Source: Escherichia phage SkaterBoy_Bas90. From it: DNA of 64,000 nt. Each line of letters opens with the position of its first letter. The first letter of the stretch is position 1. The position numbers and the translations under genes were made by a program. The stretch lies in sequence record PQ850626.1; one strand, given 5' to 3'. The notes below the pieces were generated by a model. That model had not been told where the DNA came from. It did no database searches and saw nothing but the letters and a program-made list of their open reading frames with translations. This document shows positions 572-61,559 of this stretch, piece after piece.

Positions 572-3500
572 ATGGCGCTGTATCCAATAAAGTCACTAGG
601 TGCTGTGGGCGTTATCGCTGATCAGGCTCCGACAGACTTAGCTCCTAATGCTTTCACTAATGCTATAAATGCTCGATTTGTTGAGCAGAGAGTATTTAAG
701 ACGGGGGGCAATGCCCCTCTTTCTTATGTAGATGAAGATAAGGATTTAACCCCTCTGTCTTTCGTTTCTATGCCTTTCGATTATTATAGCGCAGGTAATA
801 GCTTTCTTGTTGTAGGTACAAATAAGAAGTTATATAAACTAACAGATGAAAGCTTGACTGATATTAGCCGTAAGGTTGCTACAGTCACTAAGAAGGCTTC
901 TGCCTCAATTAAGATTTATCCAGTTGTTTCTCAGATCGTTCCTAAAGAATCAACTATCTCAATGAACTTCAATCAGACCAAGAATCTAGAGGTTTCTCTT
1001 CTCCCTGCTGATGCTAACAATACCGATCTTATTTGGGAGGTTAGTAACTCATCCTATGGAAGTATTACGGTAGACCCTAGTGACTCTAAACTTGCTACTC
1101 TAACATCTTTTGAGAAAGAGGGTAATCTTGTAGTAACTATCTCTACTGCCAATGAATCTGTAGTGGCTCAGATTGCTGTTAATATCATCGATGGTGATTC
1201 AGGCATCTTCTTGAGTCAAGATACTGTTACAATTCGTAAAGGAGGGACTACTACTCTCACGGCTGTTACTGGCAAAACTCCTGTAACTTGGTCCAGCAAT
1301 AACGCTTCTATTGTATCTGTAACTCCTAACGCCAACTCTTTAACTGCTGTCATTACAGCGAATGGAGAAGGTAATGTAACAATCACTGCTGATAACGGGA
1401 CTAAGACTGCTTCTTGTGAGATTGTTTCTATCCCTCAGATTGATAGCATTTCTTTAAGCCAGTCAGATGTTACTGTGAGTAGAGGTTCTCAGTATATCTT
1501 AACTGCTACCCTTTCTCCTGCTAACGCCCCTAATCAAAATATTACTTGGACCTCTTCTAATCCAAATATTGCAACAGTATCAGGGACTGGCACACAAGGG
1601 ACGATCAACGCTCTACTTGCTGGTTTTACTGAGATTACAGCTACCACTGAAGAAGGTAGCAGAGTTGCTGTCTGTACTGTACGTGTGGATTTAGCTGGAA
1701 GGACAATGAGAACAAGTGCTATGGCATTTGCCGCTCCTGTGTCAGAGTCAGTAGAAACTCAAGAGGAAGAAGTAGTAACTCCTCCTGAAAGTGAAGAGAC
1801 GGTTTATTTTGCTGAGCCTACATCCGGTATTGATACGTCAGGGATGTACGAAGGTAATAACTTCTATGACTACTCTAACGTGAACGACATTGAAGGTTTT
1901 GCAAGAGCTTCTTTACTGGCAACCCCTCTGTCATCTGTAACCTTAGATATTGTCAGCGCTTCTCTTGATGTTGGTGAAGAGATTGTCATTACCGCTACGG
2001 CTTCTCCAGAAGGCGATTATTCTTATCAATGGTCTGTTGATAAAACTGGCTATGTTTCTACAACTTCAGTCACTGGTAAATCTATCAAACTGGTTGCTCT
2101 CCGTAAAGGGGAGATTAATGTAACTTGTACTGTTAGTCAGATGACTCAGAAAGATTACGATGCTTTTGATGACTATCCTTGGTATCACGCTGTTATCTCT
2201 AACTGTGCAGTTGCTACAACTCACTATGAAACTCCTCAGGTAAAAGAATTCGAATCAGAATACTTTGTAGACCTTCCGGGGTGGGGTGAGCAAACAGTTG
2301 TTGATAATGATGGAAACCCTTCAGTCAAGAAGTTTAACTGGAAATGTGAGAGAGTAAGATCTTTTAACAACCGTCTTTTTGCTCTGAATATGAGAGAGGC
2401 TAATGCTTCTGGTGTTACCACTAACTACCCGCTTCGTCTTCGTTGGTCTAACTTTGCCAATGAGAACAAGGCTCCTACACTGTGGGATGACTTTGCCTAT
2501 GATCGAGTTGTGTCTTCGGACTTAGCTTCTAACATCGTAGGGCAGACTCAGGCTCTAGAGAATGGGTATGCTGGTTACATTGACTTAGCTGACTCTAATG
2601 GTAGCTTGATTGATATCCTGCCTCTTAAAGATTACTTGTTCGTTTACACAGAGTTTGAAACGTATATTGGTTCTCCGACTAATAACACGTACCAACCTCT
2701 AATGTTCAAGAAGCTCTTTAACGACTCTGGTATCCTTGCTCCTGAGTGTGTAGTTGAAGTAGAAGGTAGTCACTTCGTAGTTACTCAGAACGATGTAATC
2801 TTACATAATGGTGCAACCAAGAAATCAATTGCATCTAACCGTGTCAAGAACATGCTGATTAACGAGGTGTGTCTGGTTAACCCTCTAGCAACTAGAGTAC
2901 ACTTGCATCAGGATAAGAAAGAAGTCTGGGTTCTCTATGTAGGACCGGGGGAGCCAAAAGAAAGCTTCGCTTGTACCAAAGCTGCTGTATGGAATTATGA
3001 GTTTGATACCTGGTCTTTCCGTACTATCCCATATGCTCAGTGTATTGGTCTGGTTGATCCTCCTGTTTTAGAAAGAGGTCCAATCTGGTCTGACTTCCAA
3101 GAAATCACTTGGGATGACCCATCTATTAAAGAACTCGTTTGGAGAAAGGATGCAACAAACTTTAGACAGAGGGTTACGATAGTAGGTTCATTCTTGAAGG
3201 GATTCTATCAAGTGGATGTAGGTGCTCTTGATTATTTCTATGACAGGCTAAACGATGTTGTTATAGAGAAGCCTCTGGAAATGAGGTTGGAGAGGACTGG
3301 TATAGATTTTGATAATGTGACGAATGAGTGGAATCAGAAGCATATTAACAGGTTCCGACCTCAGACAACTGGTTCAGGTACTTACATATTTGAAGCTGGT
3401 GGTAGTCAATTCTCAAATGAATATGGACACCCACACACATCTAAGACATATACGATCGGTGTTGACAGGCATGTCTCGGTGAGACTGAACCATCCATACC

Positions 3501-3589
3501 TTTTCTATAATGTTATAGATAATGATGTTAATAGTAATGCTGCTATCAATGGTTTAACGATAGAGTTTGCTGTTGGCGGGCGGAGATAA
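572..3589 (+). CDS. tail fibre / tailspike-like protein with bacterial Ig-like (Big_2-type) repeats
   Basis: 1005-aa ORF with AGGAGG RBS 7 nt upstream; repeated ~80-aa Thr/Ser/Val-rich modules (e.g. ITATTEEGSRVAVCTVRV) typical of Ig-like domains on phage fibres; followed by a terminator. Confidence 0.6.
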   Translation: MALYPIKSLGAVGVIADQAPTDLAPNAFTNAINARFVEQRVFKTGGNAPLSYVDEDKDLTPLSFVSMPFDYYSAGNSFLVVGTNKKLYKLTDESLTDISRKVATVTKKASASIKIYPVVSQIVPKESTISMNFNQTKNLEVSLLPADANNTDLIWEVSNSSYGSITVDPSDSKLATLTSFEKEGNLVVTISTANESVVAQIAVNIIDGDSGIFLSQDTVTIRKGGTTTLTAVTGKTPVTWSSNNASIVSVTPNANSLTAVITANGEGNVTITADNGTKTASCEIVSIPQIDSISLSQSDVTVSRGSQYILTATLSPANAPNQNITWTSSNPNIATVSGTGTQGTINALLAGFTEITATTEEGSRVAVCTVRVDLAGRTMRTSAMAFAAPVSESVETQEEEVVTPPESEETVYFAEPTSGIDTSGMYEGNNFYDYSNVNDIEGFARASLLATPLSSVTLDIVSASLDVGEEIVITATASPEGDYSYQWSVDKTGYVSTTSVTGKSIKLVALRKGEINVTCTVSQMTQKDYDAFDDYPWYHAVISNCAVATTHYETPQVKEFESEYFVDLPGWGEQTVVDNDGNPSVKKFNWKCERVRSFNNRLFALNMREANASGVTTNYPLRLRWSNFANENKAPTLWDDFAYDRVVSSDLASNIVGQTQALENGYAGYIDLADSNGSLIDILPLKDYLFVYTEFETYIGSPTNNTYQPLMFKKLFNDSGILAPECVVEVEGSHFVVTQNDVILHNGATKKSIASNRVKNMLINEVCLVNPLATRVHLHQDKKEVWVLYVGPGEPKESFACTKAAVWNYEFDTWSFRTIPYAQCIGLVDPPVLERGPIWSDFQEITWDDPSIKELVWRKDATNFRQRVTIVGSFLKGFYQVDVGALDYFYDRLNDVVIEKPLEMRLERTGIDFDNVTNEWNQKHINRFRPQTTGSGTYIFEAGGSQFSNEYGHPHTSKTYTIGVDRHVSVRLNHPYLFYNVIDNDVNSNAAINGLTIEFAVGGRR

Positions 3590-3593
3590 CAAC

Positions 3594-3621
3594 AAGGGGC
3601 TTCGTGCCCCTTTTATTGTTT
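3594..3621 (+). terminator. rho-independent terminator
   Basis: GGGGCTTCGTGCCCC hairpin followed by TTTTATTGTTTT directly after the stop at 3589. Confidence 0.6.
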
Positions 3622-3632
3622 TGGAGGAACTT

Positions 3633-4601
3633 ATGGGTGCAGGTGGTTTTCGTAAGAACACTGGTCGCAATAACACCACACTCCCGTACAACGTTGGGTT
3701 TCTCAATAATGTACAGGACACAGAAACATATAACGTAGCCGTGTATGATGAATTACAAAAAGTTAGCACAGCTACTAACCAAATGTTCCAAGCTATAGAT
3801 GAAATTCACGAAGAGATTGATGTTCGTATTAAAGCTCTTAATGCAATGAATCTACAATTCGATGAGCTTGAGAATAGAATTACTACAGAGATAGAGACAG
3901 CTATTGCCGATATCCAAACACAGATGGGGAACCTCTCCACTGAAGATATTTGGGATAATTCTGTTCAACCTCCTGTAAAATTAGAAAGCACTGTATCTGG
4001 CTTTAAGACAAGTATTGAAGGTAACACAACCAAGATTCAAACTGTAGAAGGTATCGTCAACGACCAAGGTCAAGAGATTGCTTTGGTTCAGACAGAGATT
4101 CAAAATATTAATGGAAGCCTATCTCAGTATATGAAGCTCTCTGAATATGAAGCTACGTGGGGTATTAACTCTACAGTAAACGGAAGATATGCTGGGGTCA
4201 AGTTAACTAACAACGGAACAAACAGTCAATTCCAAGTAACAGCTAACAAGTTTATTGTTGGTGATGGCAGCTCTGGTAACACACCTTTTGTGTTTGAGGG
4301 TGGTAGGGCTAGGATGGAGTTCGCTGACATAAAGAACGTCAACATCACAACAGCTCAGATTGCCAACGCTAGGATCCAATGGGCACAGATTGATAACGTA
4401 TCTATCTCCAATGCTCAGATTCAGAACTTGTCAGCGGATAAGATTACTGCTGGCTCTATGTGGGGTTCTAACTGGAGACTTACTGTTGGTGGGGACTTTG
4501 TTATGGGTGGCACAGGTGGGGCACAATTGTGGATGAATGGTAACAGAATAGACTTCTACGATGGAAGCGGTGCTCTGAGAATCAGGATAGGGAGTTGGTA
4601 A
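3633..4601 (+). CDS. tail fibre-like protein (start trimmed to ATG 3633 behind a GGAGGA RBS)
   Basis: Track ORF 3567..4601; the upstream codons overlap the terminator, and the internal ATG at 3633 has a strong RBS; contains repeated ...NVNITTAQIANARIQWAQIDNVSISNAQIQNLSADKI... beta-helix-like repeats. Confidence 0.5.
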   Translation: MGAGGFRKNTGRNNTTLPYNVGFLNNVQDTETYNVAVYDELQKVSTATNQMFQAIDEIHEEIDVRIKALNAMNLQFDELENRITTEIETAIADIQTQMGNLSTEDIWDNSVQPPVKLESTVSGFKTSIEGNTTKIQTVEGIVNDQGQEIALVQTEIQNINGSLSQYMKLSEYEATWGINSTVNGRYAGVKLTNNGTNSQFQVTANKFIVGDGSSGNTPFVFEGGRARMEFADIKNVNITTAQIANARIQWAQIDNVSISNAQIQNLSADKITAGSMWGSNWRLTVGGDFVMGGTGGAQLWMNGNRIDFYDGSGALRIRIGSW

Positions 4602-5646: not shown

Positions 5647-6429
5647 ATGGCAATTAAAATGGGTATTGAAGAACTAGACCCAATGGTTCAACAGGCTTCA
5701 AAGAAGTATGGGATTCCTGCTGCTTTGATTCATGCTGTAATCCAAAGGGAGTCTAGTGGTCGTCCTACAGTGGCTTCTGGAACTGGTCCTGTAGGTTTAA
5801 TGCAGATCAGTAAAGGATTGGCTAAAGACTACGGTTACAAACTAGAAGACAGACTTGACCCAGCAAAGAACATTGATATGGGTGCTCGTTATATTAGAGA
5901 TAATTTAAAAGCTTTTAATGGTGATGTTAAGAAGGCGATGGTTGGTTACTCAGAAGGCATTGGTGGTGCTAAGCAAATGTTCGCTGGTAAAAAGGGATTT
6001 ACACCTCAAGCCCTTGACTCAATGAACAACAAACACTTTCTTCCTTTCTATGGTGATGCAGCTTCTCAGATTGCTAACCCTGTTGGAGCTTTACAAGCTG
6101 TTCAACCAGTCAATCAGTTTAGTCCTGACTTGTTAGATAGAGAGAAGGCCGCACAAGCTCCAACTCAGGCAGACATTACTGCTTCTAAGACAGGTGCTTT
6201 AGGCGGAAATCCAGTAGAGTTTTACTCTGATGAAGCACAAGAAGGGGAAGATCAGAAGCCTCAACAGAACTTTGGTAATGCAGTATTAGGTGTAGCTGCT
6301 ATGCTTGCTGGTAAACCTCCGACTTCTCAAACAGTTCAGAGGGCAAGTGCACCACATGCAGCAGGTTCTCAGTACAGTCCACAAACACAAGCAGTGCTCA
6401 GACGTTTGGCTAGCATTGGTGTAAAGTAA
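5647..6429 (+). CDS. lytic transglycosylase (SLT domain), probably virion-associated
   Basis: N-terminal ...IQRESSGRPTVASGTGPVGLMQISKGLAKDYG... matches the SLT catalytic motif (ES...GLMQ); sits inside the virion gene block. Confidence 0.75.
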   Translation: MAIKMGIEELDPMVQQASKKYGIPAALIHAVIQRESSGRPTVASGTGPVGLMQISKGLAKDYGYKLEDRLDPAKNIDMGARYIRDNLKAFNGDVKKAMVGYSEGIGGAKQMFAGKKGFTPQALDSMNNKHFLPFYGDAASQIANPVGALQAVQPVNQFSPDLLDREKAAQAPTQADITASKTGALGGNPVEFYSDEAQEGEDQKPQQNFGNAVLGVAAMLAGKPPTSQTVQRASAPHAAGSQYSPQTQAVLRRLASIGVK

Positions 6430-6448
6430 TAATCTTTAAGGAGGACTT

Positions 6449-7501
6449 ATGTCTTTATTTGGAAAATCAGCTTCTAGCAAAACCACAGTGGCCCCTTCCT
6501 CTCAGGTTGATGCCCTGCTGAAGCAGATTGTTGCTAATGCTCAGAATATGCAGAACAACGATCCGGGATTCATCTCCCAACAGCTGGCTGGGTTTAATGG
6601 CAACCAACAAGGTGCTCTGAACAACTTAGCAGCTTCTACTACTCAGAAGAAACTAGCTGATATGTATACACCACGTACACAGCAAGGGTTGGACCAATTA
6701 AACGCTCTTGCCCAGCAGTATCAGAATATTGTTAATGGTGGTGGAGTAACAGCTGAAGGGGTTAATAACTTTAGTAAAGGTTTGAATAACTCAGCCCTTG
6801 CACAAGCTACTAGCAAAGCAGCTTCTAATGTCTCTCTTGGCAATGGCTCTGACTCTGGCTCTCTCCGTAGGGCTGCGGCTCAAGGGGCTGCTTTGAATGG
6901 CGCTAACACTAACCTGTCTCGTACTATCAGTGGTAAGAATATGGGTGTAAGTGCTCTGCAACAAGATCAGAACTTCCAGAGAGGGTTGCTTGGTGCTCAG
7001 TCTGGTTTAGCTGGACAGAACCTCAATCTTGGTGCTCAAGGCGTTCAGGCAACTCAACAAGCTATTCAGAATCAGCTGATGGCTGGTAATCTGCAACAGC
7101 AACAAGCTCAAGCTCAAGCTGATATTAATTGGCAGAACGCTATTGGCTCTCAGCAGTATGGGTGGAATCAGCTTAACAACCAACTTAATGTATTAAATAG
7201 TGTAAGCCCAATGGCTGGGTATACAATTAAGAATGCTGCTCCGGGGGTTAATACTGGACAACAGCTCCTAGGTGCTGGTATCACTGGTTTAGGTATTGCA
7301 GGTCGTATGGGTGCTTTCTCTCCTAACCAACAGACTCAGAATGCTTGGAGTTCCTATAACAACTCAGGTGGGCAATCTGGAATGGCTGGTCCTATGATTG
7401 GAGGTTCTAATCTTTCTCAACAGAAAGGTCAGTCTAACTGGTTATCCACAGCAGGTAGTAATATCTTAGGTGGTGTCTTAGGGGCATTTGGAGCAAACTA
7501 A
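6449..7501 (+). CDS. Gln/Asn/Gly-rich virion protein
   Basis: 350-aa low-complexity Q/N/G/A-rich ORF with AAGGAGG RBS. Confidence 0.5.
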   Translation: MSLFGKSASSKTTVAPSSQVDALLKQIVANAQNMQNNDPGFISQQLAGFNGNQQGALNNLAASTTQKKLADMYTPRTQQGLDQLNALAQQYQNIVNGGGVTAEGVNNFSKGLNNSALAQATSKAASNVSLGNGSDSGSLRRAAAQGAALNGANTNLSRTISGKNMGVSALQQDQNFQRGLLGAQSGLAGQNLNLGAQGVQATQQAIQNQLMAGNLQQQQAQAQADINWQNAIGSQQYGWNQLNNQLNVLNSVSPMAGYTIKNAAPGVNTGQQLLGAGITGLGIAGRMGAFSPNQQTQNAWSSYNNSGGQSGMAGPMIGGSNLSQQKGQSNWLSTAGSNILGGVLGAFGAN

Positions 7502-10151: not shown

Positions 10152-10172
10152 GACCTAAGTCCTGCCTTCTAT

Positions 10173-19544: not shown

Positions 19545-20291
19545 TTAGAATGGGCTATCGTTGTCGTCTTCGTAAGTAGAAGCAGGCTCTTTATCAATCG
19601 TAGGGATTGAAGGAGTAGCTTCTTTCTGCTCTGTTTCAGAAGCACGAGTAATTTCACGACCAGCCAGAGGCATGTTCTTAGCGTCATTAGCTTGAGTAAG
19701 CAGGTTGCGCTGGAACGGGAACATCAGTTGGTAGGATGCTACGTTCTCGTCGGTTTCAGCATATGGTTCGAAGAATACCAGAGGACTACGAGCTTCACCA
19801 ACTGCTGCACGATATTTGGTTGGGATTGGAGAAATGGTCTTGATGGAGTTTTTAACTTCACCAGCTTTGTTAGTATAAGAGTTAACCAGAATGTTAACAG
19901 GCTGACCTAACAGAACATCCTTGAACCAAGATAGATCACCTTTCAGTGCTTGAATACTTGGGTCAATCATCTTGCAAAGATCAAGAATACCAGAGTTCTT
20001 AGCTCGTGGGTTTACATCATAGCTCTTGAACTGGCAAGCTGGACGTGGTTCTAATGCCTTACCATCGGAATCTTTACCAGTAGCATCAACACCAATCAGC
20101 TCGAAAGCTAAATCCATACGGAAAGCCGGATTCTTAGGAGTCACTGCTTTGGTCTTCGGGTCAATCCAAGGGTCACGATTGTGAACACCCAAACCTACTA
20201 CACGAACGATACGTGCTTCGTACTCACCATCAGGGATTACATCGTAGTTGGATTTACGGGAAGCGGTTGCGATAGTTGGAATCATAGACAT
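19545..20291 (-). CDS. single-stranded DNA-binding protein (T7 gp2.5-like)
   Basis: Acidic C-terminal tail ending in Phe (...TYEDDNDSPF), the hallmark of gp2.5-type SSBs; position beside replication genes. Confidence 0.45.
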   Translation of the reverse strand: MSMIPTIATASRKSNYDVIPDGEYEARIVRVVGLGVHNRDPWIDPKTKAVTPKNPAFRMDLAFELIGVDATGKDSDGKALEPRPACQFKSYDVNPRAKNSGILDLCKMIDPSIQALKGDLSWFKDVLLGQPVNILVNSYTNKAGEVKNSIKTISPIPTKYRAAVGEARSPLVFFEPYAETDENVASYQLMFPFQRNLLTQANDAKNMPLAGREITRASETEQKEATPSIPTIDKEPASTYEDDNDSPF

Positions 20292-20350
20292 ATTTTAATT
20301 TCCTTATTTAATTTGAAAGATTGTTGCTCTCTTTGAGCGGTTATGTATAG

Positions 20351-20359
20351 TATACATTA
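20351..20359 (-). promoter_or_regulatory. TAATGTATA motif on the - strand, about 60 nt upstream of the SSB gene
   Basis: Plus strand reads TATACATTA; lies in a 415-bp AT-rich intergenic region. Confidence 0.4.
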
Positions 20360-20422
20360 CGCTTATACCGATAAGAGTACTATATAATATAAGTATCTTT
20401 GGTAGTAGATATATCACACTAG

Positions 20423-20431
20423 TAATGTATA
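20423..20431 (+). promoter_or_regulatory. TAATGTATA motif on the + strand in the same intergenic region
   Basis: Exact TAATGTATA; it points into - strand genes, so it may drive antisense transcription or be non-functional. Confidence 0.25.
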
Positions 20432-20707
20432 TATTGTATAGCTGATAAAGTTATTGCAGGCTTGTATATTGGGCAATTCACAGAATCCCTTGCAAGTACC
20501 GAAGGGCAGGAGCCACCTGCGAGATAAAAATAGAGAATTAAGGAATCCTTGATTTAGGTTGTAGGGACTCCTAGGGACTTTGATTCTCTATTTAAAAGAA
20601 TATTAATTACTTATTACCTAAATAATTAACTAACTTACTTAAACCAAATTCAAGAATAATAGATAAAAAGATTATTCCTAAGAAAGCTAAAAAGTAAAGA
20701 ATATAAG

Positions 20708-47469: not shown

Positions 47470-47724
47470 CTACGAAGTTAAGATGATTTCAGCCTTAATA
47501 AACTTCTCACCAACAACCATATCACCAGAGATGACACGTAGTTCTCCAGTGCCTAGGTTAACAGCTCCAGCAGGTTGACAACCCCTGCTTTTAGCTGTCA
47601 TCATATAAACCTTTTGATTTTGGCACTCTTGGAGAGTGAACACATCTGACATATTTAGATCTCTGACGCGGAGGATTTTTTCCTCTTTGTCTTTAACTTT
47701 AATGTTAATAATGCTCATATGCAC
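47470..47724 (-). CDS. member of a ~80-aa paralogous family
   Basis: Shares the L-x2-L-x2-G-x-(V/T)-F core and length with at least nine other ORFs. Confidence 0.45.
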   Translation of the reverse strand: MHMSIINIKVKDKEEKILRVRDLNMSDVFTLQECQNQKVYMMTAKSRGCQPAGAVNLGTGELRVISGDMVVGEKFIKAEIILTS

Positions 47725-47969
47725 TACTCCTGAACCACTGACATACGAATCATTTCTACCTGATCATCAAGACCTTTAACAGATAACACACCTGTGGAAA
47801 GGTTTACCACAGGAACCCAACCACTGGCTATACGGATGTTACCAGAAGCATTTTCAACCCTCATGTAATACTGAGGAGAGGCACTTCCGTTCTGAACCAC
47901 GAAAGGGTTTCCGGGAATGATTGTTTCCAATCGTACCGTATTATCCTTTTTCTTTGGGATGATTTTCAT
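47724..47969 (-). CDS. member of a ~80-aa paralogous family
   Basis: As above; tandem, start overlaps the neighbour's stop. Confidence 0.45.
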   Translation of the reverse strand: MKIIPKKKDNTVRLETIIPGNPFVVQNGSASPQYYMRVENASGNIRIASGWVPVVNLSTGVLSVKGLDDQVEMIRMSVVQE

Positions 47970-48217
47970 TGCGTATTATCCACCAAAAGTTCTGCTGATA
48001 CAGGAACAACTCGGCACCAGATAGAAGGTGCTGTTACGTTACCATCGGATAGACGAAGAGTAATTGTTCGATCAGAGTTAACGGTTACATTAGGACTTTC
48101 AGACACAGACCCTTTAACATAGAGAGTAGCACTCTCAGGGAATTTAAACACTGCTCCGCTGGGGAGGGAGTTGAGATCAATCGTGGTCACTTCTTCTTTC
48201 TTGTGGGTAATCTTCAT
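47966..48217 (-). CDS. member of a ~80-aa paralogous family
   Basis: As above. Confidence 0.45.
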   Translation of the reverse strand: MKITHKKEEVTTIDLNSLPSGAVFKFPESATLYVKGSVSESPNVTVNSDRTITLRLSDGNVTAPSIWCRVVPVSAELLVDNTQ

Positions 48218-48468
48218 TTAGAATCCTTAATAACGTTAGCTTCAACCTTAACAGGAATAACAGAGATGCCCTCAACGGGGCCACTTAAGTGTCCATCTTC
48301 CAGTCTGACACACACGACTCGATCTCGTGCAACTTCTACCCAATTAGTAGATGCCGCAGTACAGACCATATGAATTGGACCGTTCTCTTCCAGCCGGAAG
48401 GTATCGCCCTTCTTCAGAGTGTGGAGTTTCACAGTCTTGATAGTTTTGTTCAATTCGTTAACTTTCAT
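48214..48468 (-). CDS. member of a ~80-aa paralogous family
   Basis: As above. Confidence 0.45.
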   Translation of the reverse strand: MKVNELNKTIKTVKLHTLKKGDTFRLEENGPIHMVCTAASTNWVEVARDRVVCVRLEDGHLSGPVEGISVIPVKVEANVIKDSK

Positions 48469-48476
48469 ATTGATTC

Positions 48477-48788
48477 CTATTTAAGTTTGAGGCTAATGTT
48501 AAGGTGCATACATGCTCTGTTCTGTACAGCAGCATAACTTCTACCGAGCATGTCAGCCATTCTCTGAATAGACATGAACCCAGCATTACGGATAAGGAAC
48601 TGGTCCTCTTCTTCAGACCATTTAACTCGGATTGAAGCTCTTGATATGCCGAATTTAGTGCAAGCTGTGTTAACAGCATTCTCCGTTACATTCATAATCT
48701 GAGCTACTTCTTGAACCGAGTACTCTTTGATTAGTCTCCGAAGATTTTCAATCTGCATCGGAGTCCATATAGTTCTTCGTGCTTTCAT
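48477..48788 (-). CDS. DNA-binding protein with two HTH-like repeats (candidate transcription regulator)
   Basis: Two similar ~45-aa units (W...EVAQIMNVTENAVNTAC and WSEEEDQFL...MADMLGRSYAAVQNRAC). Confidence 0.4.
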   Translation of the reverse strand: MKARRTIWTPMQIENLRRLIKEYSVQEVAQIMNVTENAVNTACTKFGISRASIRVKWSEEEDQFLIRNAGFMSIQRMADMLGRSYAAVQNRACMHLNISLKLK

Positions 48789-49466
48789 ACATCCTCCAAT
48801 TAATTGTTAAAACTATCAGGGGAGAACACTAGCTCTGGGCCACGCTGTAGATATTGGCCTACCTTCCACAGCTAATCAGCTAATATACTCCCCTAATAGT
48901 TTATGAATAGGGGGAGGGGACGAATCCTCCCTTATCCTATTAGTTAATATTGCATGTAAGATCTAACAATCGGTTGCCTTTGTAGGAATAAGCGTAAAGC
49001 CAATCCAGCACTAAACTCCCGCCCCCTTAGTGGGCTGGGTTATTAAAGGGTAACGCCCTTATGGGCTAGTTACATGAATGTTAGTTTGATAGGAGATCTG
49101 AAGTCCTATCTCAAAGGACTCTCGTAAGAATCCTTCACGATATTACTTATTCATCTCTCGTCGGCTATCTCTCCAAGCCAACCAAGTGTAGGTTTTCAGT
49201 TCTTCAAAGTCTTCTGGAGAGAATAGATACTCTTTGAAGGTGTTCCCAAACCACTCTAAAAATTCTTCAGTCATAAGATTCTCTTAACAAGATTGGTCAC
49301 ACGGCTGATCACCACATGTTTTACAGATCACTGGTGAGTAACTACAGGCAGGATAAACAGACACCCCATCAAACGTCTCACATCCACAATCAGGACATGT
49401 ACCGTTGGATTCCATGTCATCATCGTCATCTACTTCACCGCCACCAAAACAACTCATACAGGCTCC

Positions 49467-49688
49467 TTAGTAAACTAAACCTGTAGCCTTTGCATCAGGC
49501 TGAGGGACTACTTTTGCACTAGGGCGATAGCCATCCACTGAGCCGTTCCAAAGATTGACACAGGTGATATATCCATCGTCTATGATGTCTGTTTTAATCC
49601 AGAAGTGTTTATCATGACCAAAAATACTTCCGTTTGGCAGCGTGGACAATTCAACAGTTTTAAGTGACTGCTTAGAGTCTAGTTTCAT
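49467..49688 (-). CDS. member of a ~80-aa paralogous family
   Basis: Contains LSTLPNGSIF...FWIKTD core. Confidence 0.45.
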   Translation of the reverse strand: MKLDSKQSLKTVELSTLPNGSIFGHDKHFWIKTDIIDDGYITCVNLWNGSVDGYRPSAKVVPQPDAKATGLVY

Positions 49689-49697
49689 ATAAGTTCC

Positions 49698-49895
49698 TTA
49701 ATATACCAAACCATGTAAAAGAAACATCCTCTTTGTAAGCTCTGCTTTAGCTCTGTAATAAGCCTTAGAACCTAACAGGCGGCTCTTAACAAAGAACTTA
49801 ATGTCATTGCTAACATCTTGTATTAAACGCTCCTGTACAGTTTCTGAGGAGTTATTAATCGAATCAATTAACACCTTTGTAGATGTGTAATTCAT
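49698..49895 (-). CDS. hypothetical small protein
   Basis: Track ORF 49698..50087 trimmed to the internal ATG (MNYTSTK...), because the upstream part overlaps the lipoprotein gene. Confidence 0.3.
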   Translation of the reverse strand: MNYTSTKVLIDSINNSSETVQERLIQDVSNDIKFFVKSRLLGSKAYYRAKAELTKRMFLLHGLVY

Positions 49896-49896
49896 A

Positions 49897-50196
49897 TCAC
49901 CACTCCTTACCGGTTGTAATCGTAGAGCCACCACACCACAATGCTGTATCAATAACAACATTATCCGGTGTAGACTTCTCTTCGTTGATAGAAGGGTTAG
50001 CATTAGAACAGGTTGCTCCGTTCCATCGCATATCAATTTCACCAGAAGGAATCTTCTCACCCTTATGCCAGCGAGAAACACAAACACCTTCCACTGCTAC
50101 TGCACACCATCCATCAGGACGGCTCTGTACGCAGCCTGTAAGGGCTATGCAGACAAGGAAGATACAGATTAAGGATATTACACCACCCCAACTCAT
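49897..50196 (-). CDS. Cys-rich lipoprotein (candidate superinfection-exclusion or receptor-blocking protein)
   Basis: Signal peptide with lipobox LTGC, then a Cys-rich periplasmic domain. Confidence 0.45.
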   Translation of the reverse strand: MSWGGVISLICIFLVCIALTGCVQSRPDGWCAVAVEGVCVSRWHKGEKIPSGEIDMRWNGATCSNANPSINEEKSTPDNVVIDTALWCGGSTITTGKEW

Positions 50197-50215
50197 AATT
50201 ACCTCCTATTAGATT

Positions 50216-50331
50216 TGGTGGACTATCTGGAATCGAACCAGAAGCTCACTAAGAAAGTAATTCCCACTGTTATAAAAGCACTTGCCTCAACAGGGATACA
50301 CTAACTCTGGTGCCGCACCCATACTAGCCCT
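50216..50331 (-). ncRNA. tRNA-like fragment (intact T-arm and CCA-type 3' end, but no canonical acceptor or anticodon stem)
   Basis: - strand ends ...TCTGGTTCGATTCCAGATAGTCCACCA (T-stem, GTTCGATTC loop, 3' CCA); no cloverleaf could be completed by hand. Confidence 0.3.
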
Positions 50332-50336
50332 AAATG

Positions 50337-50412
50337 TGGTGCGCCCTACAGGACTCGAACCTGTAACCAATAGCTTAGAAGGCTACTGCTCTATCCATTG
50401 AGCTAAGAGCGC
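50337..50412 (-). tRNA. tRNA-Arg, anticodon UCU, 3' CCA encoded
   Basis: Hand-folded cloverleaf on the - strand: acceptor GCGCTCT/AGGGCGC, D-arm GCTC-AATGGAT-GAGC, anticodon stem GTAGC/GCTAT with loop CUUCUAA, T-arm ACAGG-TTCGAGT-CCTGT, discriminator A, CCA. Confidence 0.8.
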
Positions 50413-50587
50413 AGAATTATTTAGATCATATCTCGCTTGGTGATATGACCACATGTTTTACATCGAAGTATATAACGAGTACCTGTGTCTTCTATTTGAC
50501 CAATCTCATTATATATGTGTAAACGAACTTCTTTTATTGTCTCCCAATCATGCAGATGGAATAGACGTTTAAACCACTTGAACATAA

Positions 50588-50881
50588 TTACACCACCTCA
50601 ACGAGAGATGTTTTCCATGCAAACAGAGGTCCATTATCGTTAAGATAAACAGCTCCTCCCGTCTCGAACGGAGTCCCATAAGGAAGTGCCCAAGCATACC
50701 CACGAATTTCTGGCTTATGGGTAAACCCATATACCTCGCCGTTGCTATCAGTTGCTAAATATCTTATAGAGCTGTCCACTTTAACAACTTCGCCAAAATA
50801 TTTAACCTCTTTTCCTTTCATATTAACCTCAAGCACAAGCAGGGAGTGTGATGATTTTATGCTTACCATCAAATTCTCCAA
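50588..50881 (-). CDS. hypothetical protein, distant paralogue of 50829..51080
   Basis: Shares Y(L/I)A(T/I)D..G(E/Y)V(Y/W) core; N-terminus probably shorter than the track ORF. Confidence 0.35.
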   Translation of the reverse strand: MENLMVSIKSSHSLLVLEVNMKGKEVKYFGEVVKVDSSIRYLATDSNGEVYGFTHKPEIRGYAWALPYGTPFETGGAVYLNDNGPLFAWKTSLVEVV

Positions 50882-51080
50882 ATAAACCTAAGAATGTGGG
50901 ACTGTAAGTTCCAGTACAAACAAACTCATCAAACAATGCGTTATAACTAGGCTTGATCTTCCAAGCCCATACATAACCCATCTTGTCAATTGCAATGTAA
51001 CGAGTGTTCAGAGGAACAGTCATCATTATACCATCAACTTCGATCACTTTAGTGATTGGTGCAGCTTGGAAGTTTTTCAT
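50829..51080 (-). CDS. hypothetical protein, paralogue of 50588..50881
   Basis: 83-aa ORF. Confidence 0.35.
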   Translation of the reverse strand: MKNFQAAPITKVIEVDGIMMTVPLNTRYIAIDKMGYVWAWKIKPSYNALFDEFVCTGTYSPTFLGLFGEFDGKHKIITLPACA

Positions 51081-51245
51081 ACTTTACCTTTGATAAAAAT
51101 GTCATTACCACAGACACAGCATGAACGAACAACAGTAGCGCCACGCTGAACAATACGAACCTCTTCCTTAACCAGACTAATACGAGCACCGCAGCAAGGA
51201 GAGTTGACATAAGAGTAACCAGCTTGCGTATGTTTGATTATTTGC

Positions 51246-51602
51246 TTAGACATTTGATTCTAGATCTCTTAGTTGTTCAGCCAATTGTTCGCATTCATTA
51301 ACGCATAACTCTTCTGTTCTTGGTATCCCGTTAGGGTTGAACCGTGTCTTATCACCTGCATGGGCACAATCAAATCCGATTGTATCTAAACCACCCATCT
51401 CTTCAAGGGTGTCTTGCCATGTGACACCACCATGAACACTTACATAACAAACCTCTTCCTTTCCGTTATATCCGGTGAAGTTTTTATGTTTTAAGCTGTC
51501 TGGTAGCTCTACATATCCACAAAAATGGGAGTCGTTCATGTGCATAATCACAGCACGAAGACCTGATTTAGTGACCCAATCTTTAACCATGCGTCTCATA
51601 TA
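51246..51602 (-). CDS. hypothetical protein
   Basis: Track ORF 51246..51659 trimmed to ATG 51602 (AAGAGGTG RBS), because a terminator hairpin occupies 51636..51672. Confidence 0.35.
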   Translation of the reverse strand, partial: YMRRMVKDWVTKSGLRAVIMHMNDSHFCGYVELPDSLKHKNFTGYNGKEEVCYVSVHGGVTWQDTLEEMGGLDTIGFDCAHAGDKTRFNPNGIPRTEELCVNECEQLAEQLRDLESNV

Positions 51603-51635
51603 AGCACCTCTTGTTAGTTTAAGTAAGAGTTGTCC

Positions 51636-51672
51636 CTTAATTAAAACAACAAAGGCCACCCGAAGGCAGCCT
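51636..51672 (-). terminator. rho-independent terminator (same hairpin family)
   Basis: On the - strand AGGCTGCCTTCGGGTGGCCT followed by TTGTTGTTTT. Confidence 0.5.
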
Positions 51673-52067
51673 CTCTTTATTTGTTAACTGTTATACGTCC
51701 AATTACCTTGCTTGTTACGGATGGCTGACATTGCATGAATCCAGAAGCCTTCCAGTTTCAGAGCACCATTAGCTACTGCATCCATACGTTCAGGGCGGTT
51801 CATACGTTTGGTTGATACTTTCATACCTATCTCTCTTTGTTAGTGGAGGCATTATTGCCAGTTGATATAAGGGATAGCCCTAGTCAGTAGACTAACCCTG
51901 ACCGCGTACTCATTGCCGACCTTCTCTGCCTAAGAGTTCAGGTTCTAGAGCTATCTCTTATCCCAACTGGTGAAGACTCCCTACCCCTAGGAAGTCTCCT
52001 GAATCCCAAACCAATACGTACCCCTACATATCGGAAAGTCTTTCGAAAATTAACAGGTTTTAGTCTA

Positions 52068-52174
52068 ACACCGGATGTTCGAGCAAGCTCTCCCTAGCGG
52101 TGTGGCATATGCCTGAATTAATAAGTTAATGAGGAACACCCTCACATAGCCCTCTGATAAACACAAGGGCTATA
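52068..52174 (-). repeat. conserved ~110-nt intergenic element, copy 2
   Basis: Same motif order as 46661..46776; hairpin ATAGCCCT...AGGGCTAT at 52146..52173. Confidence 0.5.
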
Positions 52175-52182
52175 AGTCGGTG

Positions 52183-52401
52183 TTACTTTTGGGATAAACA
52201 CAGATCGGGACGTGGCATAACAGTGGTTGATAGACCGAAGACTTCAACAGAACCACTGCTCAAGTTAGCAGCCTTACACAAACCATCAGGGGTTTTATCT
52301 TCTAGCATCAGCCAGAAACGTTTATCATAAGAGAAAACATCACCACCTTTAATGTCCTCTGCATTTGCATATTTAGGATAATCAACTACTTTAATTTCCA
52401 T
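52183..52401 (-). CDS. member of a ~80-aa paralogous family
   Basis: IKGGDVFSYDKRFW core. Confidence 0.45.
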   Translation of the reverse strand: MEIKVVDYPKYANAEDIKGGDVFSYDKRFWLMLEDKTPDGLCKAANLSSGSVEVFGLSTTVMPRPDLCLSQK

Positions 52402-52411
52402 CTAATTGCCC

Positions 52412-52630
52412 TTATTGATATATAGAAAGGTGGATAAGTTTATTAACATGAGCGAAGTTAGGAAGGATTTGCATCTCATTGTTGAAGATATTAAAACAAC
52501 GAACCCCGCCCTCTACAGCATAAGCAGATTTCTGAAACAGACTGCCTCCCCACACAAATACATCATGTGTTTCAAGAGATCGTAACTGAACAGCCTCGTC
52601 AACAACCTTCTTTTCAATGTTCATATTCAC
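52412..52630 (-). CDS. member of a ~80-aa paralogous family
   Basis: LRSLETHDVFVWGG core. Confidence 0.4.
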   Translation of the reverse strand: MNMNIEKKVVDEAVQLRSLETHDVFVWGGSLFQKSAYAVEGGVRCFNIFNNEMQILPNFAHVNKLIHLSIYQ

Positions 52631-52878
52631 TTCCGATTGGTAATTACTGCATCATGGATAACTGAAACAGGTAAGTTTGAATCTAGCTTCATTACTTGAT
52701 TGGTGCTTAAACTGAGCACTACACAACCATTCCGAAGATCAGTCTCTGACACATGTGGTGTATATAACTGAACGATCATGTAATAATCAATACATGTTGC
52801 CTTAACTTGGAATACATCACCAAGTTTCAAAGCACCCACACACAATTCTTTAGCTTTCATCTCAAGATCAATCTTCAT
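52627..52878 (-). CDS. member of a ~80-aa paralogous family
   Basis: GALKLGDVFQV core. Confidence 0.45.
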   Translation of the reverse strand: MKIDLEMKAKELCVGALKLGDVFQVKATCIDYYMIVQLYTPHVSETDLRNGCVVLSLSTNQVMKLDSNLPVSVIHDAVITNRK

Positions 52879-53104
52879 CTTTAGCCTCTATGTTGGTTAT
52901 GTGAAGATCACTACGTACTTGGCAGACTTCATCCCGTTTAAAAGGCATGAGCTTTCCAGTTACCACATCAACACAGTTGACATAATTGTCTGCGTACAAT
53001 GTGTCGGTTCTGATGTAAAGGGATTCTTTACGCTCAAACAGAACCCCCGGCTTCATGTTATTTAAGCGAAGCATTGTACGATCGGATTTAATATTAACTT
53101 TCAT
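52868..53104 (-). CDS. member of a ~80-aa paralogous family
   Basis: LNNMKPGVLFE core. Confidence 0.45.
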   Translation of the reverse strand: MKVNIKSDRTMLRLNNMKPGVLFERKESLYIRTDTLYADNYVNCVDVVTGKLMPFKRDEVCQVRSDLHITNIEAKDED

Positions 53105-53106
53105 CT

Positions 53107-53364
53107 TTAATCCACCTTATTGGTAAGTCGAGCATTATCAACTACCTGAACAACAGTATCTTTTCTCAACATTGTTATTCTATCCGAAGTGAGATCTACT
53201 ACTACTCTTTCGTCAGGCTTCCAACTAGCTGAATAAACGGTTGAGGAATCTAGCTTTACTGTAAGATATATTTTATTTTTAGGTGGAACAGTTTCAAAAA
53301 CACTCCCCACCTTCAGGTCTTTCAGTTGCTTGACTACAGGGGCTGTATTAATATCATGCTTCAT
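53107..53364 (-). CDS. member of a ~80-aa paralogous family
   Basis: Track ORF 53107..53421 trimmed to MKHDINTAP...; LKDLKVGSVFE core. Confidence 0.4.
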   Translation of the reverse strand: MKHDINTAPVVKQLKDLKVGSVFETVPPKNKIYLTVKLDSSTVYSASWKPDERVVVDLTSDRITMLRKDTVVQVVDNARLTNKVD

Positions 53365-54349: not shown

Positions 54350-55138
54350 TTACCACTCGTAACTTACACCAGCGCCCAGAACAGCGTCACTCTCTGAAGT
54401 CATTGCCACTGATGCTTTAGTTACTACGTTTTCATTGAAACGAGCACTAACACCAATAGCAAGAGCAGATTCACCATCGTAAGCACCTACCCCAGCACCA
54501 ACAGAGAAAGCAGATCCTTGACTTACTTGCGGGATGTTAGCCATTGCAGCCACGCCAGAAATACCAGCAGAGGCATGATCACGGTTACGGTCTATTTGTT
54601 TTTGCAAAGAAGCAAAACGTTTATTGGTGGATTGTTCCAGAGCTTTGATGGATTTGGCGTTAGCATTAACGGCAGACATATCTGCATCTTTACCATTTTT
54701 GCCATTTAATCCGTCAACGCCATTCAAACCTGCTGCACCAGTTAGGCCAGTTTCGCCTTTCTTACCATCTGCACCAGAATCACCTTTTTCACCTTGAGCG
54801 CCTTGTTCTCCATCAATTCCATCTTTACCATCAATGCCATCTTTACCATCAATGCCATCTTTACCATCAATGCCATCTTTACCATCAATGCCATCTTTAC
54901 CATCAATGCCATCTTTACCATCAATGCCATCTTTACCATCAATGCCATTAGCGCCAGTGTCGCCTTTCTCTCCCTGATCACCTTTTTCACCTTTAAACCA
55001 ATCTCCGATACCGCAACCATTGGTAGATTGACCTACACCACAACCTCCATTGCCATTGCCATTGTTTCCACTTTTAGCAATAACAGGCGATGCCATTACG
55101 GACAGAGCTAGGATTGAGGATAATACAATTGCTTTCAT
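54350..55138 (-). CDS. secreted collagen-repeat protein with a YadA-like (trimeric autotransporter) C-terminal anchor
   Basis: From ATG 55138: signal peptide MKAIVLSSILALSVMASPVIA; (GIDGKD)n collagen-type Gly-X-Y repeats; C-terminus ...AIGVSARFNENVVTKASVAMTSESDAVLGAGVSYEW resembles the YadA-type beta-barrel anchor. Confidence 0.55.
   Translation of the reverse strand: MKAIVLSSILALSVMASPVIAKSGNNGNGNGGCGVGQSTNGCGIGDWFKGEKGDQGEKGDTGANGIDGKDGIDGKDGIDGKDGIDGKDGIDGKDGIDGKDGIDGKDGIDGEQGAQGEKGDSGADGKKGETGLTGAAGLNGVDGLNGKNGKDADMSAVNANAKSIKALEQSTNKRFASLQKQIDRNRDHASAGISGVAAMANIPQVSQGSAFSVGAGVGAYDGESALAIGVSARFNENVVTKASVAMTSESDAVLGAGVSYEW
54819..54946. repeat. 18-bp perfect tandem repeat, about 7 copies (CATCTTTACCATCAATGC), encoding the GIDGKD collagen-like repeats
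   Basis: Directly visible in the sequence; lies inside the CDS 54350..55138. Confidence 0.9.
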
Positions 55139-57539: not shown

Positions 57540-59490
57540 AATTGTAAGGGCGCTATTGCCCCGCTCTCTATGAGCTTGTTTAAGTCACTATTAACTTAAC
57601 TATAACCACTCGTTGTTAAGTAGTTATAGGTAAGCGGGGCGGTCTTATCAGGAGTTAACCTTGCCGCCCCCTTATCCGTGATGTTTCATCTGGTATCTTT
57701 AATTAGTCGCTATAAACGAAGCCGACCTGATAGCGATGATCAATCATCACAATAAGGCAGTGCGTCCGACTCTAATTAGTTACGTTATTGTAACCGTCGG
57801 CAATATCGTTTACTTTGCTTTCGCTCTCGCCTATCCTTTTATATCAACTCTCAATCGCTAGTCATCGCCCACTACGGGATACTATTGCGAAAGAGTCATT
57901 GACCGTCTAATGTTCCGACGTTTTATATCTTTCGGCAAGTTTACTACATAAACCGACTATGTACTTTCATCATAAGATGAATCTCAAGCCGTTCACATTG
58001 TAAACGTTCACACTAAACCTTATTGTTAAATAGCAATTTGCCACTTTTTAACCACTCCCCGCCGCTCTCAATTGAGCGTTAATTCGTCGGGATTGCCTAC
58101 CCTGATTAACTTCTTTCACTGTAGCACCGTGTTAGCAATGACCGCCGCTACCCTTAACCGTGGGCGATTAGCTCAAGTCTTTGCGTGTACTCAATGAATC
58201 CGTTTATCAATGGTGACGTTTCCAGTAAGGGAATGTAAAACTGTTTACCCTGATAATTTAGGGAGTTTTACGCCGTTTTATCTGGTATGCTTTCCGATGG
58301 TTATTATCATCAAGCATATTCAACCGATATAGGAGAATGTTTAAATTATTAAAGAGCGGTAAATCTATCAGTGTGCTTTCTCACACTATGCAACTGTTAG
58401 CCGTTGTTACGCTTTTCACTGAAGCGATGATTTGCTTAGTGAGTGCTCATTATGAATCATGTTGTTTTCGCTGTCAACCGCTTTTTAATCTTTTTCGTCG
58501 TTCCCGCTATTGGGAGGATATATCAATCAGCTTTATTTGATTGAAGATTAAGCGGTGAGGCTTAACTTATGACTCATATTGTTAAAGAGCGTTTAGCCTT
58601 TTAAAGTGTCTGCTAATCACTGTCACATTGAAGGCTTACTGATTCATTAACAGGCCGCCTACACCTGAACTAATCGCTGCACTATGTGCCACCTTTCCCG
58701 CGATACGTTGATTTGGGAACTAGTTAGCGATGTTTTGCTAACTTGTGGTTAGTATGGACTACTTTAACCACGTTTGCAACTCTTTTTATCATCTTCTTTT
58801 AATTCCTTTCCCTTATCTCGCGTGAATCTATGCGAAAGGGCAAGATGATAAGTCTGATTTGTCTTTCAGGGAATCTAGTGCGCTTTCAAGCATTAATCTT
58901 TTGAAAGTATCGAACAAATAAGGCTTATTGATATTGCTTATTGTCCGCCTGCGTCACGTATGAATCAGGAATCAATTCTACCGATTAACTGAGCGCCTTA
59001 TAGTAATGACGTCGCCGCCACCCGTAAGACAAATCATATTTTTAAAGAGCGGGATTTTTTAAGTCATCGCTGACTATGCTCACTATATATCAGGCTGTTT
59101 TCGGTGTCAATACTCTTTTTAAGAATATTTTCACTTTCTAGCCTGATTTTTAAAGAGCGGGGCAAGTTTCCTTGCCTTGTATGTTTTACATCGTACCCGA
59201 TGAAATGAAGTATACATTAATCAGTGAGGGATGCAATAGGGTAAAACAAAATATTTTAAACTTTTTCACTATAGGAAGGTAAAAGAGCGGGCGAACGTGA
59301 TACATCATAGGAAAAGGCTTGTAAAGCGATAACAAGCGGCCTATAACGCATCACAATGAGCTAAAAGGGAGTAAGGTATACAATCACCTTAGAAAAGAAA
59401 AAAGCCTCATAGCGAGGCTTATAGGAAGGATTTAAAGCATCAGATAGATTATGACCATAGGCATGACTACGGCACAATACAGGAGAAAGA
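57540..59490. repeat. ~1.9 kb ORF-poor, repeat-rich region (five TTAAAGAGCG(G) direct repeats, two TTT(C/T)ATCTGGTAT repeats, several hairpins)
   Basis: Only one track ORF (67 aa) in six frames; TTAAAGAGCG copies near 58349, 58582, 59042, 59150, 59280; a - strand TAATGTATA at 59211..59219. Confidence 0.6.
59211..59219 (-). promoter_or_regulatory. TAATGTATA motif on the - strand inside the ORF-poor region
   Basis: Plus strand reads TATACATTA; would drive transcription leftwards through the repeat region. Confidence 0.35.
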
Positions 59491-61373: not shown

Positions 61374-61559
61374 TTGATATTCCTTATGGTTGATGAAAAC
61401 TACAAACTACAATCGCAACTATATAATAAAGGAAAAGGCTGTCAACCGTTTATTTTCTAACTTTCTTGCATCCTACTGAAAACTAAAGGAATTTAATTTG
61501 CTAAACTTTCCATACTCAGAGAATCAGCTTACTAGATATTGTTACTTTATAACACTACG

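Follow-up and report, generated by a model that had tools for sequence, protein, structure and literature searches.

The early gene cluster of the coliphage phiEco32, assigned to the early class by experiment and transcribed by the host sigma70 RNA polymerase, has been described as the most variable part of the genome and as likely to hold host-takeover genes (PMC8948821; PMC4281155, PMC9965538). The window analysed here, 64,000 nucleotides (nt) of Escherichia phage SkaterBoy_Bas90 (PQ850626.1), carries ten short open reading frames (ORFs) between positions 47470 and 53364 that are diverged paralogues of one protein family. The phage is a Kuravirus, i.e. a phiEco32-like C3-morphotype podophage of the Gordonclarkvirinae, and is 99.8% identical to Escherichia phage vB_EcoP_DE5 across the region. 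The locus shares its genomic logic with anti-CRISPR loci, the ArdA/ArdC antirestriction islands of phages and conjugative elements, and the early host-shutoff clusters of T4 and T7, being composed of small, probably non-enzymatic and first-expressed, accessory and rapidly exchanged genes in one-directional runs. Those clusters have no homology to the family and normally mix unrelated folds, whereas here ten paralogues appear to share one predicted fold.

The closest described relatives are gp21 of coliphage N4 and eight families of the PHROGs database, which belong to the same sequence family and predicted fold as the ten. N4 gp21 (YP_950499, 74 amino acids (aa)) is matched by the family hidden Markov model (HMM) at E 4e-18 and is the single copy in the 50 kb of N4 examined, compared with ten in the window. 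PHROGs spreads the ten over eight ‘unknown function’ families (6570, 7832, 7431, 8365, 16423, 9955, 12612 and 33163), which cross-match one another via the window proteins; the family is thus divided there among at least eight unlinked groups, none annotated. No account of the family, or of its expansion, was found in literature searches that covered the paralogues of phiEco32, gp21 of N4, anti-defence in Kuravirus and early proteins of SH3-like fold, with the original paper on the phiEco32 genome lying outside their scope.

The ten genes are grouped as a four-gene array (array 1, 47470-48468), a singleton (49467-49688) and a five-gene array (array 2, 52183-53364). All ORFs of the original prediction, which was drawn from the letters of the sequence alone, were found again at the same coordinates, every one on the minus strand, and eight of its starts are kept. 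The GTG starts of 47470..47724 and 52412..52630 are probably wrong; ATG at 47718 (82 aa) and ATG at 52624 (70 aa), respectively, are more likely, because Shine-Dalgarno (SD) sites, the N-termini of homologues and the GenBank annotation of DE5 agree on them. An SD site lies 5-10 nt 5' of the ATG in all ten genes, and several starts overlap the stop codon of the neighbour. The members are listed below, with E-values from the external profile described after the list and the ratio of nonsynonymous to synonymous substitution (dN/dS) for close orthologues.

Member 1, 47470..47718, minus strand: 82 aa; orthologue of phi32_95; PHROG 12612; external profile E 4.5e-13; SD site aggag; dN/dS 0.15.
Member 2, 47724..47969, minus strand: 81 aa; orthologue of phi32_96; PHROG 7431; external profile E 5.7e-15; dN/dS 0.13.
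Member 3, 47966..48217, minus strand: 83 aa; orthologue of phi32_97; PHROG 7832; stop overlaps the start of member 2; external profile E 1e-12; dN/dS 0.08.
Member 4, 48214..48468, minus strand: 84 aa; PHROG 7832; nearest paralogue member 3 (pairwise E 7e-11); external profile E 6.9e-16; dN/dS 0.05.
Member 5, the singleton, 49467..49688, minus strand: 73 aa; orthologue of phi32_104; PHROG 6570; the modelled protein (see below); external profile E 9.4e-19; dN/dS 0.13.
Member 6, 52183..52401, minus strand: 72 aa; orthologue of phi32_113; PHROG 6570; nearest paralogue member 5 (pairwise E 9e-11); external profile E 4.9e-15; dN/dS 0.08.
Member 7, the most divergent, 52412..52624, minus strand: 70 aa; PHROG 33163; leave-one-out E 0.12; external profile E 2.8e-9; found among the compared genomes only in NJ01.
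Member 8, 52627..52878, minus strand: 83 aa; orthologue of phi32_114; PHROG 9955; external profile E 1e-11; dN/dS 0.10.
Member 9, 52868..53104, minus strand: 78 aa; orthologue of phi32_115; PHROG 16423; 11-nt overlap with member 8; external profile E 4.7e-16; dN/dS 0.08.
Member 10, 53107..53364, minus strand: 85 aa; PHROG 9955 (weaker match); without counterpart in phiEco32, IMEP8, MN05, LAMP and EP335; external profile E 3.8e-12; dN/dS 0.08.

Pairwise identity among the paralogues is merely 14-30%, with many pairwise E-values above 0.01, and compositional resemblance was therefore put to the test. Leave-one-out HMMs recovered nine of the ten members at E<=3e-4 among the 657 ORFs of the window; the remaining one, member 7, scored E=0.12 yet outranked every non-member ORF. 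A profile built from 121 external metagenomic proteins, none of them close to a window member, matched precisely the ten, at E 1e-18 to 3e-9, the next of the 657 ORFs standing at E 0.32. These external proteins had originally been found with a profile of the ten, so that independence is incomplete; they are still natural sequences forming a coherent family. Of 2000 composition-preserving shuffles none scored above 8.5 bits, whereas the real sequences scored 32.7-62.8 bits. No eleventh member was present at E<0.1 among the window ORFs. One small-protein family, as opposed to mere composition, had been proposed in the original prediction and is borne out by all three approaches, and the core motif given there, L-x2-L-x2-G-x-[VT]-F, is roughly right, the F being invariant and the G present in only eight of the ten.

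Each gene is predicted to encode a single cytoplasmic domain of 70-85 aa folding as a five-stranded SH3-like barrel. The AlphaFold2 prediction, covering member 5 alone and made with an alignment of 134 sequences, gave a predicted local distance difference test (pLDDT) score of 88.7, about 97 in the core, and the model is a five-stranded SH3-like beta-barrel with strands at residues 22-25, 28-37, 40-45, 51-54 and 59-62; an alignment of 23 sequences gave the same topology. The other paralogues were judged via matches of this model among the predicted viral structures of BFVD, which include, at template modelling (TM) scores of 0.57-0.83, entries resembling orthologues of several of them by phage name and length, as well as N4 gp21 (TM 0.82), proteins of Proteus Myduc and Erwinia Cronus, and PaP3 ORF.65, all uncharacterised. 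Structure prediction had been suggested as a check of a shared fold, and the fold so predicted is common to the modelled member and the likely orthologues of other paralogues. Foldseek against the PDB found nothing at E<0.001; the nearest solved folds are SH3-like barrels of translation proteins, i.e. the uL2 C-terminal domain, EF-P/eIF5A domain I, KOW and Tudor.

The conserved columns of the family are hydrophobic-core or glycine-turn positions (M1, I3, L14, L17, G20, V22, F23, Y30, M31, V44, L46, G49, V60). Across the 134 sequences F23 is invariant and G20, G49 and V60 are at least 90% conserved, and the motif series L-x2-L-x2-G-[DS]-x-F ... Y-[MI]-K-T ... V-N-L-x-[TS]-G ... V-x-P-V is kept at most positions by the window members. 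The family alignment has no invariant polar residue and no conserved catalytic-type residues. Indels concentrate at the beta2-beta3 loop and the tip of the beta3-beta4 hairpin; within orthogroups, too, it is these loops, along with the N-terminal arm, that vary. The ten range in isoelectric point (pI) from 4.9 to 9.3, in net charge from -2 to +3 and in grand average of hydropathy (GRAVY) from -0.53 to 0.21; the wider family is mildly acidic, with a median pI of 5.2 and a pI above 8 in 7 of 121 proteins. Inspection of the ten sequences by eye found no signal peptide or hydrophobic segment.

Pfam gave no match for the ten at E<=1, nor for 134 members at E<=0.01, NCBIfam yielded no relative, and a sequence-profile search of the PDB with the family HMM returned no relative, only chance-level matches such as antibody heavy chains. 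The HMM search that the original prediction had recommended did find the family in other phages and in metagenomic clusters. In an exhaustive search of 1.84 billion cluster representatives, 1,257 clusters (50% identity) were matched at E<=1e-3, all uncharacterised; among the best 150 of these, 130 are 60-95 aa long, and nearly all of the 130 match end to end. Family proteins are mostly full-length, at 66-95 aa, a few clusters being two-domain tandem fusions. In the 148 kb of T4 scanned there is no family member, the best match being ndd.1 at E 0.03. This is thus a real and uncurated family that is widespread among phages and mobile elements, and N4 gp21 is its sole member from a model phage.

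Several longer or misnamed proteins were met in these searches. The metagenomic protein P0121 (478 aa; residues 139-474) couples a SprT-like metalloprotease domain to five tandem repeats C-terminal of it, each matching the HMM at E about 1e-9, and P0144 (3223 aa) has six weaker repeats; both sets look genuine, and the barrel probably also serves as a repeated module within large proteins. Two other long multi-domain matches, P0123 and P0181, look like spurious repeat matches. Some relatives carry unsupported names: ‘endolysin’ for IMEP8 gp111 and for the EcoN5 UniProt entry in BFVD, ‘putative two-domain glycosyltransferase’ for NJ01_132 and ‘DNA helicase’ (EcoN5, P0104).

Six distinct metagenomic contexts of the family were sampled. 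In all six the family gene belongs to a series of small unannotated ORFs that run in one direction; a second copy is present in three of them, as a tandem pair in one and as a dispersed pair in two. One context has ArdA 6 kb from the family gene, another has ArdC and a GGACT/AIG2-like gene 8 kb away, and in a further one the family gene lies among DUF4313, cREC_REC, DUF932 and RVT_1 genes. PHROG annotation of the metagenomic neighbours returned unknown-function families only. The ArdA/ArdC associations are suggestive and not statistical. A tblastn search of the 72,556 plasmids of PLSDB with the consensus and with the metagenomic member P0294 gave no family match, and a designation as a plasmid leading-region family is therefore unsupported. 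In N4, the gene for gp21 comes directly downstream of those for a P22 gp17-like superinfection-exclusion protein, a membrane protein and a lipoprotein. Elsewhere in N4 (34003-34485), gp49 carries the annotation DUF2829, the family of the anti-Thoeris protein Tad2; it has no connection with the finding described here and bears on the anti-defence content of N4. The 183-kb scaffold bearing the tandem pair (ENA ERZ5850168, SRR1747025_scaffold_4) has genes, e.g. 3072-3998 and 5673-7154 (minus strand), with 3-9 in-frame stops under table 11, and may be a stop-codon-recoded phage or element.

Copy number within the Gordonclarkvirinae varies from 3 to 11: EP335 has 11, the window phage/DE5 and NJ01 10, phiEco32 9, Paul and MN05 8, IMEP8 7, and LAMP 3. 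The distant phage 7-11 has three to four scattered copies. In LAMP (MG673519), a 68.5-kb Kuravirus, the whole of array 2 is missing between gp112 and gp116 (20154-20455) and three members are kept; on the host of LAMP, lytic growth can thus do without the arrays. Most paralogues have syntenic orthologues, at 49-96% identity, in EP335, which belongs to another genus (Nieuwekanaalvirus), and the duplications are therefore older than the split of the genera. The duplication and diversification put forward in the original prediction are old events, as borne out by these orthologues, the low identity among paralogues and the shared predicted fold. Among Kuraviruses an orthologue may be 90-100% identical, 50-70% identical (divergent alleles) or absent, and the genes adjoining family members are typically 90-100% identical. 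dN/dS among close orthologues is 0.00-0.15 for all ten, like that of neighbouring genes, which marks each copy as a functional, constrained protein. The diversity comes from gene gain and loss and from allele replacement, not from pervasive positive selection detectable at this resolution.

The phiEco32 orthologues (phi32_95-98, 104 and 113-115) fall within the early gene cluster. In the window, three near-consensus sites resembling sigma70 promoters lie upstream of the family genes on the same strand.

58449..58477, minus strand: sigma70-type promoter-like site, 11/12 consensus matches; probable early promoter of the leftward unit that includes the family.
59082..59110, minus strand: sigma70-type promoter-like site, 11/12 matches; probable early promoter.
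61418..61445, minus strand: sigma70-type promoter-like site, 11/12 matches; probable rightmost early promoter.

The position of the first agrees with the early promoters described for phiEco32 and SU10 (PMC4281155). The family genes are, as judged from position, probably expressed early from promoters of the host RNA polymerase, because their orthologues sit in the phiEco32 early cluster and sigma70-like sites lie upstream. No promoter of the gp36 type, recognised by the phage sigma factor (TAATGTATA), occurs between 47 and 58 kb. An exact match to TAATGTATA does stand at 59211-59219 (minus strand), within the early-promoter spacer and some 100 nt upstream of one sigma70-like promoter; exact matches number five in the whole window, against 0.55 expected, the other four being at 10172 (plus), 20351 (minus), 20423 (plus) and 27204 (minus).

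Taken together, these data may point to non-enzymatic early proteins that bind host proteins for host takeover or counter-defence, each paralogue with its own target; this is our preferred reading, and a tentative one. A non-catalytic cytoplasmic scaffold, variable loops, early expression and a variable multi-copy repertoire are the signature expected of stoichiometric binders. The ten genes would be read in the leftward early unit by the host sigma70 RNA polymerase immediately upon DNA entry. The SH3-like barrel would provide a rigid, non-catalytic scaffold on which the N-terminal arm and the hairpin loops (beta2-beta3, beta3-beta4) vary between paralogues, and each paralogue would bind, and then neutralise or redirect, a different host protein, be it a component of a defence system or of housekeeping. 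Gene gain and loss, with replacement by divergent alleles, would tune the repertoire to the hosts met by a lineage. A host-takeover or counter-defence role, which had already been raised in the original prediction, is consistent with the early cluster, the copy number of 3-11, the allele turnover beside conserved neighbours and the ArdA/ArdC genes in two of six contexts. The reading also fits a report of remarkable resistance in the Gordonclarkvirinae to restriction-modification (RM) and to nearly all of the defence systems tested, for which no inhibitor is known (PMC11990801). A stronger form of the proposal, a binder library in which one scaffold duplicated up to eleven times per genome neutralises with the loops of each copy a different immunity protein or host factor, is speculative and unlikely.

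Several observations weigh against this reading. A few unrelated small early genes vary in the same way between Kuraviruses, so that the variability is not specific to the family, and close orthologues are under purifying, not positive, selection. ArdA or ArdC within 8 kb in two of six contexts amounts to two anecdotes, and the PLSDB plasmids gave no match. In the SU10 proteome no family member was seen (PMC4281155). The authors of the BASEL study tentatively ascribe the RM resistance to DNA modification and not to inhibitors (PMC11990801), and the literature searched yielded no experimental function or target for any family member.

Two known classes of anti-defence protein were compared with the family and rejected. 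DNA-mimic antirestriction proteins of the Ocr, ArdA or Arn type, which are strongly acidic with a charge pattern like that of DNA, do not fit the pI and net charge ranges of the ten, and there is no Pfam ArdA or Ocr match. Tad2/DUF2829 anti-Thoeris sponges gave no DUF2829 match at the Pfam thresholds stated above for the ten and for the 134 members.

Nucleic-acid-binding small barrels, comparable to KOW, Sm, EF-P domain I or the uL2 C-terminal domain, would bind RNA, the ribosome or DNA and modulate early host or phage translation or transcription. The nearest solved folds, being the translation barrels and Tudor, and a weak Pfam EFP_N match of one distant P0144 repeat speak for such a role, which is nevertheless unlikely given the charge and pI of the ten, the mild acidity of the wider family, the lack of any basic residue conserved family-wide and an HMM without a PDB relative. 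At the level of fold the predicted barrel resembles the N-terminal domain of EF-P/eIF5A, the C-terminal domain of uL2, Tudor, CarD and the C-terminal domain of UvrD. The family consists of stand-alone proteins of 70-85 aa, whereas the translation barrels are domains of larger factors, and where EF-P has the hairpin with its modified lysine, the family has its most variable, indel-rich loop. Homology to EF-P domain I or EFP_N was rejected: hhalign to a manually entered E. coli EF-P sequence gave a probability of 0.3%, the ten have no EFP_N match at E<=1, and there is no PDB match.

Early accessory phage genes often serve exclusion, competition or regulatory roles. The family could likewise be directed at phages, acting in superinfection exclusion, in competition with co-infecting phages or prophages, or in regulating or chaperoning the phage's own early-to-middle switch, in place of an action on host immunity. 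The neighbours of N4 gp21 (the P22 gp17-like superinfection-exclusion gene, the membrane protein and the lipoprotein) and the position of array 1 directly after a conserved helix-turn-helix (HTH) regulator gene (48477-48788) are in line with these functions. Envelope exclusion proteins are unlikely since the ten lack a signal peptide or hydrophobic segment, and ten diverged copies, with a range of 3-11, are a poor fit to a single regulatory step, LAMP managing with three; roles of this kind are, overall, improbable.

Immediately downstream, in the same early unit, lies a peptide-ligase module (phi32_77-88) comprising ATP-grasp, COOH-NH2 ligase, amidoligase, glutamine amidotransferase and gamma-glutamyl cyclotransferase genes. 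The barrels could be partners or substrates of this module, being modified themselves or presenting the targets of modification. Phage 7-11 has the module together with its three to four family copies, PaP3 ORF.65 is a fold match and the annotation of 7-11 cites PaP3 homologues of module genes, and in one distant context a GGACT/AIG2-like gene is 8 kb away from the family gene. Such a partnership is highly improbable: N4 has gp21 and no module in the 50 kb examined, most metagenomic contexts are without the module, the ten share neither a C-terminal motif nor an acceptor motif, and LAMP retains the module with just three copies. What probability remains lies with functions beyond those considered here.

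That there is no real family, but only compositional similarity or non-coding ORFs, as the 14-30% identity and the many pairwise E-values above 0.01 might suggest, is already refuted by the external profile matching exactly the ten, the shuffles at no more than 8.5 bits, the cross-matches among the eight PHROG families, a high-confidence predicted fold common to independent BFVD models, dN/dS of 0.00-0.15 and SD sites in all ten genes.

Additional features of the window can be noted around and beyond the family. The HTH protein encoded at 48477-48788 (minus strand), directly upstream of array 1 in the direction of transcription, has 103 aa and is annotated ‘D5-like transcriptional regulator’; its Pfam matches to sigma-70 region 4 and other HTH models are sub-threshold, none reaching the curated cut-off for a single stretch. 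Within the early cluster, the product of 54350-55138 (minus strand) consists of collagen triple-helix repeats (GIDGKD x9) and, after them, a membrane anchor of the YadA type (PF01391 6.8e-17, PF03895 4.4e-19), i.e. a trimeric-autotransporter-like protein in a lytic podophage; the phiEco32 orthologue, phi32_119, is annotated ‘tail protein’. The ten-copy family is the sole paralogous family in the window besides two unrelated adjacent pairs, 6440-7501/7502-8482 (plus strand, phmmer E 1.9e-13) and 25939-26256/26225-26488 (minus strand, phmmer E 1.3e-10). A suspected second family, 50588-50881 with 50829-51080, had no phmmer support.

Host-takeover and anti-defence functions that still await discovery lie mainly among the small early genes of phages. 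Eight unlinked PHROGs, N4 gp21 and more than 1,200 metagenomic clusters are now joined in one family with a confident predicted fold, variable loops that may determine specificity, and an exceptional expansion to 3-11 copies, and Pfam or PHROGs could take up this family definition in curated form. Should each copy prove to have its own binding target, the family would constitute a natural set of small binders to bacterial proteins. Were the binder library real, the family would be the determinant of the unusually broad resistance of the Gordonclarkvirinae to restriction and other defences, and N4 gp21 together with more than 1,000 metagenomic relatives would represent a large unrecognised class of anti-defence proteins.

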